Shown: positions 11,268 through 64,000 of the stretch, piece by piece
Numbering within the stretch: position 1 is the first letter of the stretch
Layout: every line of letters begins with the position of its first letter
Assembly: GCA_041661005.1 (NCBI GenBank)
Contig: JBAZVG010000001.1
Span: 295,544 to 359,543 of the forward strand
From: Minisyncoccota bacterium
Lineage (GTDB): Bacteria; Patescibacteriota; Minisyncoccia; Phycocordibacterales; UBA9973
DNA: 64,000 nt
Direction: 5' to 3'
Position numbers and translations under genes: made by a program
The notes under the pieces: model-generated
Database searches by the model: none
Told to the model about the DNA's origin: nothing
What the model saw: the letters and a program-made list of their open reading frames with translations, nothing else

Positions 11268-12959
11268 TCAGTAAACTTCCTGCTGGTAGCATTTTTCGCA
11301 ATACACTATCTCTGGACGGCCCGCTTCGTCGGAGCTTGAGCGAGGCGAGTCAGGGGCATAATTTGTCGTAATTTCCTTCTGACATTTGGCGCAATTACGA
11401 TTCCAGAATTTATATGGACCACGGCGAATGATGCGGTCTTGATGCCGGCAATAAAAACATTTGCGAGGTGTAGGAATATTCATTTTTTTATAAAACAATA
11501 GCTCTTGATTTATAATTTTATAATTTCTGTTACAATCTATGCATCTTAAAATTTCACTAGTGATTGAATCCTGCACATCTTTTATGTGGTCGGGAATATC
11601 TTCTGGTTTCATAGTTTCCTTCCCTTCTGTCTTTTGAATATCGTCTTCCCAGCGAAAACCTTGCGCGATAGCTTCTTCCTTAGTAAGAGGCATATTGTCC
11701 TGCGCAATTGTTTCGTTATAGGCAAATGGCGCAAGTTCGGGTGGAAAATAAAGTCCATACAAATTTTTCTCTTTTAATTCGGAAATAATTCTAGTCCTAA
11801 TCGCTTCATACTCCTCTTTAGTATATCTTTTATTTAAAATTACATATTTTCCATTTCTGACACTATCACAACCAAAGCAATATTCAGAAGAACGTAGGGC
11901 AAAAGAATAATCTACGTCGTGCGATCCGGTACTCCACCATGAACCAATGACATTACTGGAAGTTCCAACAGCAACGCATTCTAATAATAATTCACTTCTT
12001 CTGCCATGACCGATCAAATCATAACAATTCTTGGTGCGTTTGTTTGAAAAAAGAAATTTAGAGTCCTCACAAAAAGATATTTCGTATGAATTATGGCAAT
12101 TCTTTGATTCAAAAATATAATCTCCAGAAACATTTATATTCCTCAGATTGCTGTTTTCTTTTCTAGGAAAACGCATTGAAAACTTTTTAAATTGAGTGCG
12201 AAATTCTTCCATATTTTTGTAACTTCCCATAATTTCTGATATTCTTTTTTGATATTCGTCTCTAGATAATGGTTCATTGAAAAAATGATGTGATTTGTGA
12301 CGCAAATTAACGCAACCAAAGCAATTTTGGCAATCTGAACAATTCAGAAGGAAAGCGGAATCTATACAGTTATCCGCATTTTGCGCCCATATAACTCCAG
12401 AACTTGTATTAACATTTATTGCCTCATAAATCTTTTCGTCTTTGTTTGCATAATACGAATCGAACGCTTCGCGACATGAGATCATCCCTCGAGAATAAGC
12501 GCATTCTTCATTATTAGGACCTGAATTAAAAATAAAATAGCAGTTCTTGTTTCCTCCCGCAAAATTTGTATACTCGCTATTTATATTTGGACCGACATCT
12601 TCGGAAGCAAAAATGCCTGCCTTTGGAACATGAATCATTAATTCTTTCATCTGATCAAAAAAAGGCTTTTGAGGATCATAATCTTCCCCATAAGAAAATG
12701 GGTCCCACTTTTCAGAAAGCCAACAGTCTTTACAATAAACGATATAAGGAGATTTTGGACCATACATTGAGATAGTAGACTTTCCGCACATTCCACAGAC
12801 GCGATTGTAAAGATTTATTTCATTCCTAAAGAGAGCGCGCCACTTAAATCTGCATTCCGGACAATTCACGGGCACTGGCACTTTCATTTTCTCGTAAAAA
12901 GAAAGGTCATCTTTTTCTAAAATGAATTTTTGTTTACATTTTTTACAATCTTGCATCAT
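11268..12959 (-). CDS. Large cysteine-rich protein (563 aa) with N- and C-terminal zinc ribbons, paralog 2
   Basis: N-terminus 'CKKCKQKFILEKDDLSFYEKMKVPVPVNCPECR'. The ribbon repeats near the C-terminus ('CIDCNRNYKIINQELLFYKKMNIPTPRKCFYCR'). Ends '...RPEIVYCEKCYQQEVY'. Start is 4 nt downstream of the ATPase-2 stop. Confidence 0.55.
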   Translation of the reverse strand: MMQDCKKCKQKFILEKDDLSFYEKMKVPVPVNCPECRFKWRALFRNEINLYNRVCGMCGKSTISMYGPKSPYIVYCKDCWLSEKWDPFSYGEDYDPQKPFFDQMKELMIHVPKAGIFASEDVGPNINSEYTNFAGGNKNCYFIFNSGPNNEECAYSRGMISCREAFDSYYANKDEKIYEAINVNTSSGVIWAQNADNCIDSAFLLNCSDCQNCFGCVNLRHKSHHFFNEPLSRDEYQKRISEIMGSYKNMEEFRTQFKKFSMRFPRKENSNLRNINVSGDYIFESKNCHNSYEISFCEDSKFLFSNKRTKNCYDLIGHGRRSELLLECVAVGTSSNVIGSWWSTGSHDVDYSFALRSSEYCFGCDSVRNGKYVILNKRYTKEEYEAIRTRIISELKEKNLYGLYFPPELAPFAYNETIAQDNMPLTKEEAIAQGFRWEDDIQKTEGKETMKPEDIPDHIKDVQDSITSEILRCIDCNRNYKIINQELLFYKKMNIPTPRKCFYCRHQDRIIRRGPYKFWNRNCAKCQKEITTNYAPDSPRSSSDEAGRPEIVYCEKCYQQEVY

Positions 12960-47925: not shown

Positions 47926-48225
47926 TTAGATTCTAAAATACGAAACCATATGTCCAGTTTTTCCATTCTGTTTTATTTTTCCTTCTTTTTCGAGTTGTGA
48001 AAGATATCGGGTCGCTGTTGCGTCAGATACATGAAGAAATTTCTCGACTTCGTCATTTGTAATTTTAGATTGTTTTAGAAACAAAGACATCACTTTATCT
48101 AATTTCTTTCGCTTTCGGAATTGAATTGCGTTTCGAGCTGTGATTAGAAGTTCGCGAACAAAAGACTTTTTAGTGGTTGAGTAAGGACTACCCTTGCTCA
48201 ATGTTTTATGAGTGAGTTTGTTCAC
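47926..48225 (-). CDS. Hypothetical protein with C-terminal winged-helix (99 aa)
   Basis: 'VSDATATRYLSQLEKEGKIKQ' wHTH-like. The N-terminus overlaps the repeat hairpin 48199-48220. Promoter-like motif copy E lies upstream. Confidence 0.4.
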   Translation of the reverse strand: MNKLTHKTLSKGSPYSTTKKSFVRELLITARNAIQFRKRKKLDKVMSLFLKQSKITNDEVEKFLHVSDATATRYLSQLEKEGKIKQNGKTGHMVSYFRI

Positions 48226-59184: not shown

Positions 59185-59664
59185 ATGGATAAAAAAAGAA
59201 GTTTTTGGGAGAGATTGACTGGAAGCGTTAATGTCGAGGAGAAATACGAAGAACCAAAGAAAAATTCAATGGCAGGCAGTAATGGAGGCAGGAAAGACAA
59301 GAAGAACGGCAACTGGATCGAAGAAGAAAACGAAGAAGCAGAATTGGCGGTAGATGTTTACCAGTCTGGAACAAATATAATCGTGGAAACCATGGTTGCT
59401 GGAGTTAAACCAGAAGACTTGGAGCTGTCAATCGCCCGCGACATGGTCACCATCGTCGGCAAACGTGAAGAACATCGAAATATAGACGAAGAAAATTATT
59501 TTACAAAAGAACTCTATTGGGGGAAATTTTCCCGCACCATATCTCTTCCTCAAGAGATAGAACCGGAAGAAGTCGAGGCGACGGAACGCCATGGCCTTCT
59601 CACCATTCGCCTGCAGAAAGTGGATAAAGATAAGAAAAACAATATAAAAGTAAGGTCAATCTAG
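59185..59664 (+). CDS. Hsp20/alpha-crystallin small heat-shock protein
   Basis: ACD core 'VDVYQSGTNIIVETMVAGVKPEDLELSI...FSRTISLPQEIEPEEVEATERHGLLTIRL'. Confidence 0.8.
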   Translation: MDKKRSFWERLTGSVNVEEKYEEPKKNSMAGSNGGRKDKKNGNWIEEENEEAELAVDVYQSGTNIIVETMVAGVKPEDLELSIARDMVTIVGKREEHRNIDEENYFTKELYWGKFSRTISLPQEIEPEEVEATERHGLLTIRLQKVDKDKKNNIKVRSI

Positions 59665-59699
59665 TAAATATTTTTTGTGGTGTGTCTTTTAAACTCGGC

Positions 59700-60360
59700 T
59701 AGAACTTATTTCATTAAAAATTCGGCGGAAACCCGAAATGTAAACAAGGTCTCGGTTTTGCTAAAGCGATTCTTGGGGAAATGATTTAGCAAAACCTCGG
59801 CTAATATTTTCTTAAATTCGGCGAGATTCCGAATTCTGCCCGCAGGGGGTTTGGGGGAATGCGGGAAACTCAAAATTCAAAATGCTCGGTGCCTTCGTTC
59901 ATCATATCATATTGTGTTTGGTCTAAAGGAATACACCCGAGGCATCCGCCTCGGGAATTTCCGCTAGGGCTACGAGCGCCAGTTCTAGGAGCGGATTTTG
60001 CCGAACGGCTCAAATACCAGGAAATGAGCCGTTCAAGCAAAAACCCGCAACTGGTTGGGGAGAGGATTCTCCTCTCCCCAGTGCGTTGCCTCGGTTCGTG
60101 CTCGTTTCACTCGCATCCCGCAGAGCGGGACAGGGCTCACCCCACCCGGCCGCACAAACCCCTCTCAGGTTTTTCATGTCCGTGTTTAGTGTGTCGCTTT
60201 CGCTACGATACTTTGTATTGCATATCACTCAGGCGCTCGTCTTTAGCCCAGACACCCTAGCGGAAATTCCCGAAGGCGCAATGCACTCGTGCTTGCCCCG
60301 AGTTTGCGGTTACGCAAACTCACCCCACCCGTGCGTGCACGCGGGAACTCACTCCCTTAT
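59700..60360. other. GC-rich (~52%) hairpin-dense non-coding region; candidate large structured RNA or foreign DNA remnant
   Basis: Many perfect hairpins (GGTTTTGCTAAA..TTTAGCAAAACC; GGGGAGAGGA-TT-CTCCTCTCCCC; GAACGGCTCA..TGAGCCGTTC; CCCGAGGC-ATCC-GCCTCGGG; AATTCGG..CCGAATT). Internal repeat 'CTCACCCCACCCG'. Only short overlapping ORFs on both strands. Confidence 0.3.
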
Positions 60361-60369
60361 TTTATTAAT

Positions 60370-60560
60370 TAATTTGCATTCATCTTGGCTTTAGTCTTCG
60401 GACCAATCAGTCCATCTGGAACTAAACCAAGATGTAGTTTGTCATTCAAGAATCTCTGAAGTTCCTTGACAACTCCACCCAAACTCCAGAGTCGGAGGGT
60501 GACGGTTCCGAGGTTGTAAGTATTAGTAGTAGTTGCTGTAGACAATTGTTGACAACACTA
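60370..60560 (-). pseudogene. Remnant of a peptidoglycan-binding (PG_binding_1-like) domain, duplicated from the 3' end of the 61230-63938 gene
   Basis: Minus-strand translation gives '...TYNLGTVTLRLWSLGGVVKELQRFLNDKLHLGLVPDGLIGPKTKAKMNAN*'. This parallels the C-terminus 'NYNLGTVTLRLWSRGEAVKELQRFLNDKLNLGLVLDG...GPKTKAMMNAQ', with an internal deletion and no start codon. Confidence 0.5.
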
Positions 60561-60615
60561 CTCTTTTTACTAAAATAGTCAGATGAAAAAATTACAAACT
60601 TTTTCTTTTTCAAAA

Positions 60616-61212
60616 TCAGTAGTGGCCCCAACATTCAGCCCCAGGCGTATAAATAGACCAAGCTGTAACATTACTGCCATCTCCCGAACCACTGCAACTT
60701 CCTGAAAAAGGTTGGTTACCTCCTACATTCTTTGGTCCACCGTCATATACTGGGTCAGCATGATTTTTAAGAAGGTCGGGATTCTCAGGATTCAAAAACA
60801 GAAGTTTAAAATCTGTTCCATCGCTCGCATAAAGATATTTTCTAGTTACTGGTACACCATAGCATGTTTTCGAAGGATCGTTGGGTACATCTTTCATATA
60901 CGGTTCCATCGCAGTTTTAAATGGAAGAGACCAATCATTACTACTCACACAACTATAATCTCTTTTACAATGAGAAACCCCAGCTAAATCATGACATCCA
61001 GTAGTAATAGGTATATAATAACCACCACCATGATCCGCGGCATAAAGTTCTACGGCAATATGCATCTGTTCTAAATCATTTATTCTTACAGCATCTCTAG
61101 TTTTAGCTCTAGCACTATTAAGTGAGCTCAAAACTATACTCGACAAAAGACCTATTATTGAGACTACTACAAGAAGTTCTATCAGTGTAAATCCTTTCGT
61201 GTTTAATTTCAT
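60616..61212 (-). CDS. Type IV pilin / pseudopilin
   Basis: Class III signal peptide 'MKLNTKGFTLIELLVVVSIIGLL' (G^FTLIE prepilin cleavage/methylation site), then a Cys-containing globular domain. Confidence 0.75.
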   Translation of the reverse strand: MKLNTKGFTLIELLVVVSIIGLLSSIVLSSLNSARAKTRDAVRINDLEQMHIAVELYAADHGGGYYIPITTGCHDLAGVSHCKRDYSCVSSNDWSLPFKTAMEPYMKDVPNDPSKTCYGVPVTRKYLYASDGTDFKLLFLNPENPDLLKNHADPVYDGGPKNVGGNQPFSGSCSGSGDGSNVTAWSIYTPGAECWGHY

Positions 61213-61229
61213 AAAATATTTTCATTTTC

Positions 61230-63938
61230 TTATTGCGCATTCATCATCGCCTTCGTCTTCGGACCAACTAGTCCATCGGATACTAGATTGTGATCAGTTT
61301 GCCATTTCTTGATAACTGCAATTGTCTTAGGGCCGAGAATTCCATCCAGAACTAGACCAAGATTTAGTTTGTCATTCAAGAATCTCTGAAGTTCTTTGAC
61401 GGCTTCACCTCGGCTCCAGAGTCTTAGAGTGACCGTGCCGAGATTGTAATTTGAAGCGCTGGTTGGAACATTTCCAATACAGGAAACTCCAGTGGTTGAA
61501 GAGAAGCCAGATGTTCTGTTGCCACAGCCTGGGATGGTGGAAGGGGTGGTAGGAGGAGCAACCACGATTGGTGTTTTTGATACTGAAGCATTCATCATGG
61601 CTTTGGTTTTAGCTCCAATTAATCCGTCTGGTACTAGACCATGATCGAGTTGCCATTTCTTGATGACGATAATTGTTTGTACGCCTAGTTTACCATCTAC
61701 TACTAGACCTAGATTCATTGTGGCATTCAAGAATCTCTGTAGTTCCTTGACTGCTTCACCAACACTACCTTCCTTGAGAGTGACATTACCGAAGTTGTAG
61801 GTACCAGAGGATGAAGAATTTAGAGCACATGATTGACCAGTAGTTTTACTGAAGCCAACTGTTCCATTGTCACATCCTGCAATTGTATTGAGTGGACTAT
61901 TTCCGCCTAATGTATCTGAAGGAGGATTATTGACATTACCTCCTCCTCCCCCAGGAGAAGGTTGAGTGACAGATGGAATGACGGTAAAAGTAGCAATGAC
62001 AGTTGAATCTTGAGTAGGGACAAAGGAACATGAGTTTACTCCAGAGCAGTATCCACCACTCCAACCGGTGAAGGTGGAACCAGATGATGGAGTTGCGGTG
62101 AGAGTGATTGCACTACCTGTAGTGTGACTACAGTCTGTGCCACAATTAATGCCTGTGGCTGTGACAGTACCGCTACCAGACCCAGATTTGTTGACAGTAA
62201 CAGTATGAGTAGAAGGAGTAGGATCAGTGCCTTCGATTACTGTATAAGTGGAAAAGCCAGAGACAGTGAAGACAAGAGTCTTTCCTTGACCTGCGACTGT
62301 AGAGTAAGAAGGAGTGCCACAAGTGGTACATAATACTCCATCTTTTAATATTTTTACTGTATTAAAGGAGAGGTTGTAGAGAGTGATGGTAGCAGGACGG
62401 TTTAACTCAGGAAGTGAAGTAGAATTGAGAGTGACTAAGGCTTGTCCAATAGTGAGATGAGAGTCGATGTCAAGCGCATCACCATTACTCTTGATTAACG
62501 GAGCGTTGGTGAAGGAAACTTTGCCATATGCAGTACCCAAGTCGAAAGAAGATGAATTGAGATCACCGCTTAGTGTAGGTTTGATTGTGAAATGGGTGAG
62601 TTTAGGCAAAGGACAGCCAAGGGTGTTAACTGTTACCCCAAGCGGAGTGCTACCACATTTATCATTAATATTTAAGACTCCATCGTTGTCCAAGTCATTA
62701 GAAGGAGGAGTCGGGAGAGTTGAGAAAGTTCCATCACCGGATGTAGTAGGATTCCCAGCTGCATCAGTTGAGATTATTCGGTAGTGGTAGATGCTGTTAG
62801 GAGTGAGAGAAATTAATGTCATTGTTCCAGAAGAAGTGGAAGCACTGCTATTGCCATATCCAACTGTCGCTCCATATTGAATGATGGTGGTAGTAGGTTC
62901 ATTGTTAGACCAAGAAATGGTGGCACTGGTTGTGGTTAAGTTAGAAGCATTGATACCGGTGATGGAAGGAGCAGTGGTGTCGGCAGGGATGGAAGAAATT
63001 GAAATAGAACAAGATGCTGTGGTTCCTCCGTTTGAACCTAGACATGACCAGAGGTAGTTGGTACTGGTGTCAGTGATGTCGGAGAAGGTGCCGGTGGTGC
63101 ATTGATTGAGGGTGGTGGAGCAGAGGCCGTTCTCAGGAGTTTGGGTACTGCCACCAGAATATTCATAGGCACCTATGTCCCAAGAGGATCCACGGGTAAT
63201 TCCTGACCTATCTTTAAGAATAAATGAGTCGGATCCAGATAAATTTAGATTGGGTAGCGAAGACAGATTTCTTCCTTTATTGATTACATTTGTCGAATTT
63301 GATGTCGGAGCAAGATTTGCACTGAGTTGCGGGTTTTGAGTTTCGCTCATATCAGTCGTGTATCGCTGTGGCAAAAATACATTGGCTGAATTTTGACTTT
63401 TAAATGTTGCGTACGGCATGGTAAATTCCACATTAAATGTACCCATGTCTTTCATGTTGACTTGAACTTTTGTGCTTGCACCTGCTGGACCGGGGGCATA
63501 AATATTATTATCAAAGACAACATTGTTATTGGTCGAGCCTCCCCACCCAGTGATGCCCCATTTTGGATTTAGGTCTCGTCCAAATCCTATGCCGGTAGAA
63601 TTGGTCATTGAATTATCGTAGAAAATATTATTGAGAACGTAGAAATTGGAAATAGTAGGGTCATAGGGAATCGGATTGTTGCCATCAGACTGGCCACCTT
63701 GTCCGGCAGAGGCATAGAGATGGAGTCCTGAACCGCTTCCGGTAAAGCCGACCATGGTGTTATTTGCAATTACTACATCAGATATCGAAGCCCACGAACC
63801 ACCGCTTGGAGCTTGAGGCGAGAATGTGATACCGAGACTCCCGGTTTGAGCGCTTGCATTGGTGTAGCCACTGCCGACATTGTTTATCATTCTGATACAA
63901 CATAAATTAGCATCATTGACTTCAGGAAGTGGGTTCAT
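61230..63938 (-). CDS. Large surface protein (>=902 aa): beta-helix-like N-region, FN3/Ig-like middle, two C-terminal peptidoglycan-binding repeats. 5' end may extend beyond the window.
   Basis: The ORF reaches the window edge without an obvious signal peptide at the first Met. The C-terminal 'GEAVKELQRFLN...LVxDGxxGxKT' segment is duplicated. Ser/Thr/Gly-rich low-complexity regions. Confidence 0.55.
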   Translation of the reverse strand: MNPLPEVNDANLCCIRMINNVGSGYTNASAQTGSLGITFSPQAPSGGSWASISDVVIANNTMVGFTGSGSGLHLYASAGQGGQSDGNNPIPYDPTISNFYVLNNIFYDNSMTNSTGIGFGRDLNPKWGITGWGGSTNNNVVFDNNIYAPGPAGASTKVQVNMKDMGTFNVEFTMPYATFKSQNSANVFLPQRYTTDMSETQNPQLSANLAPTSNSTNVINKGRNLSSLPNLNLSGSDSFILKDRSGITRGSSWDIGAYEYSGGSTQTPENGLCSTTLNQCTTGTFSDITDTSTNYLWSCLGSNGGTTASCSISISSIPADTTAPSITGINASNLTTTSATISWSNNEPTTTIIQYGATVGYGNSSASTSSGTMTLISLTPNSIYHYRIISTDAAGNPTTSGDGTFSTLPTPPSNDLDNDGVLNINDKCGSTPLGVTVNTLGCPLPKLTHFTIKPTLSGDLNSSSFDLGTAYGKVSFTNAPLIKSNGDALDIDSHLTIGQALVTLNSTSLPELNRPATITLYNLSFNTVKILKDGVLCTTCGTPSYSTVAGQGKTLVFTVSGFSTYTVIEGTDPTPSTHTVTVNKSGSGSGTVTATGINCGTDCSHTTGSAITLTATPSSGSTFTGWSGGYCSGVNSCSFVPTQDSTVIATFTVIPSVTQPSPGGGGGNVNNPPSDTLGGNSPLNTIAGCDNGTVGFSKTTGQSCALNSSSSGTYNFGNVTLKEGSVGEAVKELQRFLNATMNLGLVVDGKLGVQTIIVIKKWQLDHGLVPDGLIGAKTKAMMNASVSKTPIVVAPPTTPSTIPGCGNRTSGFSSTTGVSCIGNVPTSASNYNLGTVTLRLWSRGEAVKELQRFLNDKLNLGLVLDGILGPKTIAVIKKWQTDHNLVSDGLVGPKTKAMMNAQ

Positions 63939-64000
63939 ATAGAATCCCTGACTCGTGCGATCGTATTCGCCAAAGTCGTAAAAATAATTACTCCATACTC

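Follow-up and report, generated by a model that had tools for sequence, protein, structure and literature searches.

A stretch of DNA of 64,000 nucleotides (nt) from a Minisyncoccota bacterium (the window; positions 295,544 to 359,543 of the main contig of the assembly, JBAZVG010000001.1, called C1 here) contains a region rich in guanine and cytosine (GC) between hsp20 and a pilin-like gene. The question raised by this region is what it encodes. The initial annotation, which was made from the letters of the window, had proposed a large structured RNA or a degraded foreign insert. The best explanation of the findings in this work, to which we assign a probability of roughly 0.72, is an undescribed structured RNA gene of about 675 nt on the minus strand that forms the outermost (tRNA-distal) element of an island linked to tRNA-Phe. 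The proposal of a large structured RNA is supported by covariation, by an asymmetry of G-U pairs, and by wide conservation. The proposal of a foreign insert is correct as to origin, as the region belongs to a recombinase-bearing island of 15.4 kb between hsp20 and tRNA-Phe. It is not correct as to degradation, as the window copy departs from the RNA family at 2 of 98 near-invariant columns and has an intact core. Positions without a contig or locus name are those of the window, and the coordinates of the features are shown in Table 1.

Structure and strand of the RNA

The 5' end of the RNA was inferred from the conserved GGGAGU, and the 3' end from the end of the conserved block and the homology of the repeat described below. 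About 34 of 38 homologs have GGGAG or GGGGA where it is expected, and the anchor of four rows was an atypical or internal match. The 5' motif is a probable transcript start or processing site. The members of the family share a conserved core of about 430 nt, which consists of a G-rich 5' domain, the long-range helix P2, hairpins, and a near-invariant block of 33 nt, followed by a 3' domain of about 190-340 nt. The most conserved block was used as the exact core pattern for the scans of genomes and contigs.

The alignment of the 38 sequences (A2) covers the 5' two-thirds of the RNA, and its 5' part is misaligned for one subtype (W-type rows). RNAalifold predicted 39 pairs from this alignment, 17 of which have compensatory changes. 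The curated model of 45 pairs in seven helices exhibits 94.3% standard pairs, compared with 41-52% when the partners are slid by 1-3 columns. Fifteen of its pairs are changed on both sides, compared with 3-6 in the slid controls. None of 500 column shuffles reached the observed value on four of five measures, and two of 500 reached it on the fifth.

Helix P2 consists of 21 pairs whose strands are 285 nt apart, with 98% of cells paired and compensatory changes at five pairs. P2, P3, and P4 form a three-way junction that is closed by P2. P3 contains 10 U-G and 17 G-U cells, which are standard pairs on the minus strand only. P4 exhibits an exchange of CG to UA in 7 of 38 sequences, and the closing helix of the 5' domain (GUGC/GCAC, 4 base pairs (bp)) exhibits an exchange of UA to CG in 10 of 38.

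The G-U cells number 142 and the A-C cells 45 when the alignment is read on the minus strand, compared with 74 and 76 on the plus strand. The corresponding numbers for the curated model on the minus strand are 88 and 44, or 65 and 15 without the partly misaligned P7. The minus strand was assigned because G-U exceeds A-C on this strand only. The consensus energy is -201 for the minus strand compared with -187 for the plus strand.

The 3' domain was analysed by anchored search only, where the tested hairpin form was found in 19 of 113 regions compared with 1 of 113 shuffled regions. The arms of the 3'-domain hairpin co-vary, with eight different arm sequences and Watson-Crick pairs in 221 of 228 cells. 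Two other pairings were tried and dropped. Pairing of the 5' GGGAGU with a 3' ACUCCC as a closing helix fits, by eye, only three sequences and not the window copy, and a pseudoknot between GGGGUUUG and the C-rich loop is inconsistent across the subtypes.

Relatives of the RNA are also present in metatranscriptome contigs from four runs of four studies, for example in a contig of 700 nt that spans the equivalent of 59856-60281.

Composition, folding, and coding potential

The region had been described as GC-rich and hairpin-dense, and both descriptions were borne out. The GC content in 200-nt windows is 0.485-0.58 across 59800-60399 compared with 0.25-0.44 in the flanks, and it is 0.50 for 59680-60380 compared with 0.38 for C1. 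Eighteen inverted-repeat pairs were identified within 59600-60450, and the local hairpins of the initial annotation are among them. Two perfect long-range pairings that were absent from that annotation are included in Table 1. The folding energy is better than that of shuffled sequences on both strands (z = -6.3 for plus and -6.0 for minus), with none of 20 shuffles being as good. The internal repeat that had been placed at 60145 and 60325 exists as a 13-mer, at the corrected positions given in Table 1.

The description of the region as free of open reading frames (ORFs) was nearly right. The region has no coding signal, and it contains ORFs of up to 133 amino acids (aa): the longest are 133 aa and 102 aa on the plus strand and 72 aa on the minus strand. 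None of the five tested ORFs (55-133 aa) of the RNA region has a Pfam match at E <= 1. The stop-free stretches of the 38 homologs have a median of 102.5 aa, compared with 89 aa for shuffled sequences, whose 95th percentile is 138 aa. The indels between close copies of the RNA are multiples of three in 4 of 21 cases and frame-breaking in 17. Lack of conservation elsewhere and homology to a protein had been named in advance as observations that would speak against an RNA; relatives were found, and Pfam gives no homology.

Comparison with known RNA classes

The search of the whole window against Rfam 15 at gathering thresholds (cmscan) returned four tRNAs only. At E <= 10, the interval 59500-60700 has five matches with 11.5-24.8 bits compared with cut-offs of 46.7-200, and none of them is to the families that the initial annotation had listed for this check (RNaseP_bact_a/b, tmRNA, OLE, ROOL, GOLLD, HEARO, and group I/II introns). 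No Rfam model reaches E = 0.01 within the RNA itself. The earlier inspection by eye had found no RNase P, tmRNA, or group II signature, in agreement with Rfam, which places RNase P RNA at C1:99448-99747 (100.6 bits) and tmRNA at C1:24695-25095 (115.9 bits), both above the cut-off and away from the RNA region. The same search of six homologous loci returned tRNAs and one sub-threshold ar14 match outside the RNA. This match (positions 2335-2440 of locus L043, 47.4 bits compared with a cut-off of 58.8) lies between a tRNA-Thr gene upstream and a release-factor-2-like gene downstream, and probably has no relation to the RNA.

RNase P RNA and tmRNA are single essential copies, while the RNA described here has four copies in the genome of the window and was detected in 15 of the 36 genomes searched within the genus. 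It is intergenic and follows a stop codon in 16 loci, unlike a group I/II intron. The RNA of the signal recognition particle (SRP) was not detected in the genome of the window by RF00169 (E <= 10) or RF01854 (default E <= 0.001), and RF00169 detected none in 30 relatives while detecting it in the control genomes. The identity with SRP RNA was rejected because SRP RNA is equally undetected in relatives with and without the large RNA. This lineage either lacks SRP RNA or has a very divergent one. TIGR arrays were ruled out, as tandem periodicity and a Tas gene are both absent.

The literature searches, which covered listings and abstracts, returned no account of the RNA or its islands. The RNA is rated as a new class without a counterpart in Rfam and with a context most like that of ROOL and GOLLD.

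Copies and taxonomic distribution

The genome of the window (0.93 Mb) has four full copies of the RNA with the invariant core block, namely the window copy and copies B, C, and D, which are 70-85% alike. The BLAST search identified the RNA in 19 of 60 relatives, which consist of 15 of 36 genomes within the genus and 4 of 24 in other families. Among the sampled genomes of the order, at least 60 of 400 have the RNA, which is a lower bound with two candidates scored per genome. Nine genomes of other orders have it among 301 genomes of the class.

The exact core pattern was found in 1 of 400 other genomes of a phylum-wide sample and in at least 120 metagenome contigs, and it has no match in the viral contig collection. 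The record titles of the public matches to a core variant that is 1 nt longer name Patescibacteria, Paceibacterota, and Minisyncoccia, with a few short contigs otherwise labelled. The genome samples are draws, and the counts apply to the genomes searched.

The tRNA-linked island

The window island consists of two modules that are inserted between hsp20 and the 3' end of tRNA-Phe. In six of seven genomes of the same genus, tRNA-Phe(GAA) lies 5-725 nt behind hsp20 and is convergent with it, and in the seventh (L108) no tRNA was found. The distance from hsp20 to tRNA-Phe is 15.4 kb here, and this interval corresponds exactly to the two repeat-bounded modules. The comparison of the window flanks with the fetched RNA loci by tblastx exhibited no shared context.

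Module 1 is a cargo operon of 11.6 kb that reads into the RNA, and it is bounded by the 3' domain of the RNA on one side and by an orphan copy of this domain, in inverted orientation, on the other. The 3'-domain arm of the window copy recurs in inverted orientation 11.6 kb away, outside the window, at C1:366987-367177 with 95.3% identity over 191 nt; the repeat search gives arms of 171 nt at 98%. The partner arm of copy B is 100% identical over 213 nt at a distance of 6.8 kb, and that of copy D is 99.6% identical over 229 nt at a distance of 11.5 kb. The repeat pairs of these three loci therefore span 171-229 nt at 98-100%, and copy C has a diverged partner arm only. The genes between the arms all read towards the RNA, like a single operon that ends in the RNA. 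Within the window these are a fragment ORF (60369-60545), the pilin-like gene, and the start of an ORF of 2136 aa, all on the minus strand as is the RNA.

The cargo of the window island consists of the pilin-like gene, surface proteins with DUF5018 and peptidoglycan-binding domains, and the 2136-aa ORF, upstream of which are DUF5018-like proteins of 213 aa and 875 aa. The cargo of the other islands consists of an SF1 helicase-nuclease, AAA_13, DUF2130, S49 peptidase, and TPR proteins. XRE, ImmA-like, and DUF4411 genes are located near the recombinase. The three annotated islands showed no genes for capsid or terminase.

Module 2 consists of a large serine recombinase gene and the second repeat, which contains the 3' end of this gene and abuts the tRNA. 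A second inverted-repeat pair (117-160 nt at 93-100% in three loci) starts directly beside each partner arm and brackets the recombinase gene, whose 3' end is within the outer arm. The recombinases have 516-538 aa with Resolvase, Recombinase, and Zn_ribbon_recom domains. All four copies of the RNA are in tRNA-linked recombinase islands, each at a different tRNA gene (Phe-GAA, Thr-UGU, Ile-UAU, and Thr-GGU), with the outer arm adjoining the 3' end of that gene. The repeat arm of the window island ends 4-5 nt inside the 3' end of tRNA-Phe.

The 3' end of the RNA is tRNA-like, with the GUUCNNGC block located 22-28 nt from the end of homology. In the six loci with clean repeat ends, homology stops 22-28 nt past the GTTCNNGC motif, which is the distance from the T-loop to the 3' end of a tRNA. 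Where they meet the second repeat, the 3' domain of the RNA and tRNA-Phe both terminate in ..CACC.

Similar repeats were identified in public contigs. Among 84 copies with sufficient flanking sequence, 21 have a second 3' domain in the fetched DNA; this second domain is inverted in all 21, with 89-100% identity. It is upstream in 18 of them, which places the RNA core within the bounded segment. Eight public contigs end exactly at the partner arm. The placement of the recombinase was counted over 24 loci with a repeat pair. The recombinase is just outside the RNA end in two loci and just outside the partner end in six, including the three loci of the genome of the window, and it points away from the segment in all eight. 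It is on both sides in two loci (symmetric contigs), inside the repeat-bounded stretch in three, and was not found in the fetched DNA of 11. The core-bearing module occurs in both orientations relative to the recombinase in different samples. We infer that the cargo-plus-RNA module can invert, because the repeats are near-identical, contigs end at the repeats, and both arrangements are present in different samples.

The genome of the window has about ten large serine recombinase paralogs, four of which adjoin a copy of the RNA 3' domain. Four paralogs are located on small separate contigs (C2, C3, C4, and C8), which may be unplaced pieces of islands.

Downstream of the RNA, on its strand, a tRNA-Thr(CGU) gene is present in 4 of 26 loci and, in a second set, in 4 of 58. 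The island of copy C (L241, C1:4000-17000) lies between tRNA-Thr(GGU) and tRNA-Thr(CGU), which are directly adjacent in a relative (L029 524-672), and this looks like a second pair of a filled and an empty site. A short inverted copy of the 5' leader of the RNA (GGGAGU ... GGGUGGGGCAAGUG) with AT-rich sequence upstream is found at L238 12849-12892 on the minus strand. It reads into the second repeat arm (12675-12834) and meets the orphan 3' domain tail to tail, and it could encode another, small RNA or serve as a promoter module. The orphan fragment at C1:8392-8572 is followed by a similar leader arrangement.

The winged-helix gene and its palindromes

Copies B, C, and D in the genome of the window have a gene for a protein of about 225 aa directly upstream, on the same strand as the RNA. 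The protein consists of a disordered N-terminal half that is rich in Pro and Glu and a conserved C-terminal domain that is winged-helix-like. Its match to HTH_24 (18.6-20.9 bits) is a near miss below the Pfam cut-off of 21.9, and PHROGs and NCBIfam matches cover the same stretch. Its Atlas neighbours are hypothetical Minisyncoccota proteins with HTH_24 and HTH_DeoR. The protein likely has a winged-helix fold and is a candidate member of the HTH_24 or DeoR-like regulators.

The stop codon of the winged-helix gene is 2-18 nt ahead of the GGGAG of the RNA. This gene is the only recurrent neighbour among the 38 RNA loci, where it is present in 16 loci, always upstream and on the same strand; downstream of the RNA are hsp20 (convergent), a tRNA, or other genes. 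It is present in 16 of the 17 copies whose P8 has the form GAACGGCUCA-loop-UGAGCCGUUC, with the window copy as the exception, and in none of the 21 copies with other forms of P8. In an independent set of public copies, it is present in 27 of 88 and in none of the 30 with the other type of P8.

P8 is a palindrome of 32 bp in these copies, and a second copy of the cognate palindrome is located in each winged-helix gene or in the spacer behind it. The two palindromes co-vary by lineage in both stem and loop, with the loop cores ACCAGU, ACACCA, GGGCGG, and UUCCACC. A palindrome match of at least 24/30 was found in 12 of the 27 gene-linked copies of the independent set compared with 2 of the 61 others, and the 12 strong matches consist of eight inverted and four direct ones. 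In the homologs G261 and G188, the second palindrome is past the stop codon, right at the start of the RNA. Both orientations of the palindrome occur, so the loops cannot always pair as RNA, and the palindromes are read as double-stranded DNA sites. They are putatively two operators for the winged-helix protein that bracket the start of the RNA. A conserved function through RNA 'kissing' between P8 and the winged-helix mRNA was considered and rejected, as pairs of the same orientation exist.

A fragment of a winged-helix gene, which encodes the C-terminal 65 residues only, is located at about 47932-48126 on the minus strand (C1:343475-343669), 11.5 kb from the RNA, and its product is 86% identical to the protein of copy B. 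A reverse-transcriptase-like gene adjoins the RNA in 4 of 117 public copies (L102, L177, L185, and L147), and in two of these four it is directly upstream, in the place of the winged-helix gene. A homolog of it in the genome of the window is at C1:614558-615565, far from the copies of the RNA.

Proposed explanation and its alternatives

We propose, as the most confident of the steps that follow, that the RNA would be a stable trans-acting product of the island and not a part of the core machinery of the host. The winged-helix protein would bind the matching 32-bp palindromes as double-stranded DNA and would thereby control the RNA gene and its own gene in the GAACGGCUCA subtype, which is the step held with the second highest confidence; the window copy would have lost this gene. 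The third in confidence is that the tRNA-like 3' end would mark the recombination or target site of the island recombinase, and that the repeats would let the cargo-plus-RNA module invert. Our best guess for the folded core, held with the lowest confidence, is that it may have a structural or scaffold role for the element, of the kind suspected for ROOL and GOLLD.

Several points weigh against this explanation. The window copy is without the winged-helix gene, has a private change of 2 nt in an otherwise invariant block, and is without two 3'-domain blocks that are common to most members. The count of G-U to A-C in the 3' domain is 2 to 0, which does not settle the strand there, and the conservation of this domain could stem from recombination as a DNA repeat and not from a function of the RNA. 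The metatranscriptome contigs belong to relatives and indicate presence only, as RNA libraries can hold DNA. Six of the about ten recombinase paralogs have no RNA 3' domain nearby. The proposed inversion comes from different samples and not from one population, the action of the recombinase at the repeats is putative from the sequence, and the scaffold role of the core is a guess from comparison.

A bolder version of the proposal is unlikely. The RNA would be a guide, scaffold, or directionality factor for the large serine recombinase, or the core of about 430 nt would self-assemble into an RNA-only cage like ROOL and GOLLD. In the recombinase version, the RNA would be read outward through the end of the island and would carry a tRNA-like terminus identical to both repeat arms. 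If true, the former would be the first RNA-dependent large serine recombinase system, and the latter would be a ROOL/GOLLD-like assembly in bacteria with sub-megabase genomes.

We regard it as improbable that the region has no RNA gene and consists of island machinery at the DNA level, with terminal repeats, recombinase sub-sites, and operators, where the palindromes are bound by protein dimers. Such machinery would explain why the last 190 nt or so are an arm of a long inverted repeat beside a recombinase cassette, and why the P8 palindrome behaves like a double-stranded site whose loop occurs in either orientation and co-varies with the second copy. However, the core is outside any repeat, and its helices pair strands 285 nt apart through compensatory changes, unlike dimer-binding sites. 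The excess of G-U over A-C on one strand only is a signature of RNA, the eight variants of the hairpin arms stay complementary, and relatives are present in metatranscriptome contigs. It is improbable to the same degree that the region is a cis-acting 3' extension of the winged-helix mRNA, co-transcribed with the gene and regulating it through pairing of P8 with a hairpin in the coding region. The start of the RNA 2-18 nt past the stop codon fits such an extension, as do the complementary loops of most pairs (8 of 12 in the independent set and most of 16 in the first set). On the other hand, the palindromes have the same orientation, with loops unable to pair, in G107, G261, and 4 of the 12 strong independent matches; the winged-helix gene is missing upstream of 21 of 38 family members and of the window copy; and the second palindrome of G261 and G188 is past the stop codon, at the start of the RNA.

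It is very improbable that the RNA is a divergent form of a known class (RNase P RNA, tmRNA, SRP RNA, group I/II intron, OLE, ROOL, GOLLD, or HEARO). The size and GC contrast of the region resemble those of such classes, and the SRP RNA models find nothing in the genome of the window. Against this, no Rfam model reaches E = 0.01 within the RNA, RNase P RNA and tmRNA are located elsewhere above their cut-offs, and SRP RNA is undetected in 30 relatives whether or not they have the large RNA. Four diverged copies and the presence in 15 of 36 genomes of the genus are unlike a housekeeping RNA, and the gene interrupts no other gene, unlike an intron. The least credible alternative is a decayed protein-coding gene of foreign, GC-richer origin. 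The 133-aa plus-strand ORF and the location within an inserted island are in line with it, but the five ORFs have no Pfam match at E <= 1, the open stretches are no longer than those of shuffles, 17 of 21 indels break the frame, and nucleotide conservation across the order follows the pattern of the paired columns.

Comparison with known systems and significance

Large and intricately folded bacterial RNAs are rare, and comprise the ribosomal RNAs, RNase P, tmRNA, group I/II introns, OLE, ROOL, GOLLD, and a few more. ROOL and GOLLD are described as large ornate RNAs of unknown function that are carried by mobile DNA near tRNA genes (PMC12286853). The RNA in this work is similar to them in its size class (about 600-800 nt), in its elaborate conserved secondary structure, and in having no obligatory protein partner known. 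It exceeds 500 nt with a covariation-supported structure (about 675 nt, 45 modelled pairs, and 15 compensatory ones), and its four copies here are in mobile DNA beside tRNA genes. It differs from them as it has no sequence or structure match to their Rfam models, its hosts are Patescibacteria, its exact core pattern has no match in the viral contigs, its 3' domain also serves as an arm of an inverted repeat next to a large serine recombinase gene, and one of its subtypes is linked to a winged-helix gene.

The G segment of phage Mu with gin and the C segment of phage P1 with cin are invertible segments of several kb, with the serine invertase gene just outside one repeat. The repeats of the P1 C segment are about 0.6 kb with crossover sites at their outer ends. 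The constant end of the gene is in or outside the repeat in Mu and P1, so that both orientations give a complete product. The islands in this work also have inverted repeats that bound a segment and an adjacent recombinase, as seen in three loci of the genome of the window. However, the invertases of Mu and P1 have about 190 aa and the enzymes here are large serine recombinases of 516-538 aa. The repeat completes a non-coding RNA here and not a tail-fibre protein, the recombinase gene is in a second repeat-bounded module, and the inversion here is deduced from sequence.

The islands resemble genomic islands at tRNA 3' ends in their exact insertion at the tRNA 3' end, in the empty site seen in relatives, in the recombinase that adjoins the tRNA, and in their variable cargo (surface proteins, defence-like ATPases, helicase-nuclease, and XRE/ImmA-like regulators). 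They differ in having a serine recombinase in place of the usual tyrosine type, long inverted repeats in place of short direct repeats, and a large RNA at the tRNA-distal end. The bridge RNA of the IS110 family is about 180 nt. This RNA and other RNAs linked to recombinases or transposons are similar to the RNA here as structured RNAs at the end of a mobile element, part of which coincides with the recombination end. The RNA here differs from the bridge RNA in its size of about 675 nt, in the recombinase family, and in exhibiting no sign of guide loops that match target and donor, and the resemblance is a lead only.

Each of the earlier classes of large RNA opened new biology. The sub-megabase genome here keeps four copies of about 700 nt, which together with their islands make up several percent of the genome. 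The genetic context of the RNA (a DNA-binding protein with palindromes, a large serine recombinase, two nested sets of repeats, and integration at tRNA genes) offers handles that ROOL and GOLLD lack. A family of islands is thereby described in a group with poorly known mobile elements, and its cargo of pilin, surface-protein, and defence-like genes matters for the episymbiotic lifestyle attributed to Patescibacteria.

Coordinates and flanking genes

Table 1. Features of the RNA region, the island, and the flanks in window positions.
Feature	Position	Strand	Details
Structured non-coding RNA gene (favoured reading)	about 60356 to 59682	minus	about 675 nt; from alignment, covariation, and G-U counts
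5' motif GGGAGUGAG	60348-60356	minus	AT-rich sequence before it, with -10-like TAAAAT
5' domain	60289-60340	minus	G-rich conserved strands GUGCACGCACGGGUGGGG ... GGGGCAAGCAC flanking variable hairpin 60300-60321
Long-range helix P2, 5' strand	60255-60277	minus	partner 59948-59969
Long-range helix P2, 3' strand	59948-59969	minus	within the most conserved block of the family, GUAGCCCUAGCGGAAAU..CCCGAGGCGGAUGCC
Hairpin P3	60251-60254 with 60238-60241	minus	
Helix P4	60232-60236 with 59976-59980	minus	
Small conserved hairpin	60195-60204	minus	GAAA tetraloop (GGAA in relatives); near-invariant AGCGAAAGCGACAC block
Hairpin P7	60057-60079	minus	GGGGAGAGG ... CCUCUCCCC; 9 pairs, 5 with compensatory changes
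Hairpin P8	60003-60034	minus	GAACGGCUCA..UGAGCCGUUC; 10-bp perfect stem, 12-nt loop; subtype-specific palindrome
Small hairpin P10	59928-59938	minus	right after conserved block; 3 pairs, 2 with compensatory changes
RNA 3' domain	59679-59865	minus	arm of long inverted repeat
C-rich-loop hairpin, 3' domain	59839-59865	minus	
Long hairpin, 3' domain	59754-59796	minus	
Terminator-like hairpin, 3' domain	59721-59737	minus	
T-loop-like block	59682-59707	minus	AAGUUCUAGCC..GACAC; limit of conservation
Local hairpin	59754-59772/59778-59796		19-nt arms, 84%
Local hairpin	60047-60066/60070-60089		20-nt arms, 80%
Local hairpin	60003-60012/60025-60034		10-nt arms, 100%
Local hairpin	60300-60308/60313-60321		9-nt arms, 100%
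Local hairpin	59936-59943/59948-59955		8-nt arms, 100%
Perfect long-range pairing	59951-59969 with 60255-60273		19 nt
Perfect long-range pairing	59972-59980 with 60232-60240		9 nt
13-mer repeat CTCACCCCACCCG	60136-60148 and 60319-60331		
Island, part inside window	59679-64000		continues to C1:370620 (about 75077 in window numbering); 15.4 kb in total
hsp20	59185-59664	plus	PF00011, E 1.2e-17; chromosomal flank of island
58-aa peptidoglycan-binding fragment ORF	60369-60545	minus	between pilin-like gene and RNA region
Pilin-like gene	60616-61212	minus	N_methyl, E 1.4e-7
2136-aa ORF	61230 to beyond 64000 (L238 2274-8684)	minus	repeated surface-protein-like segments

The 58-aa ORF nearly duplicates the C-terminal, peptidoglycan-binding repeat of the neighbouring giant surface protein. 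It ends 12 nt upstream of the GGGAG of the RNA and looks like a gene fragment that was left after a rearrangement.

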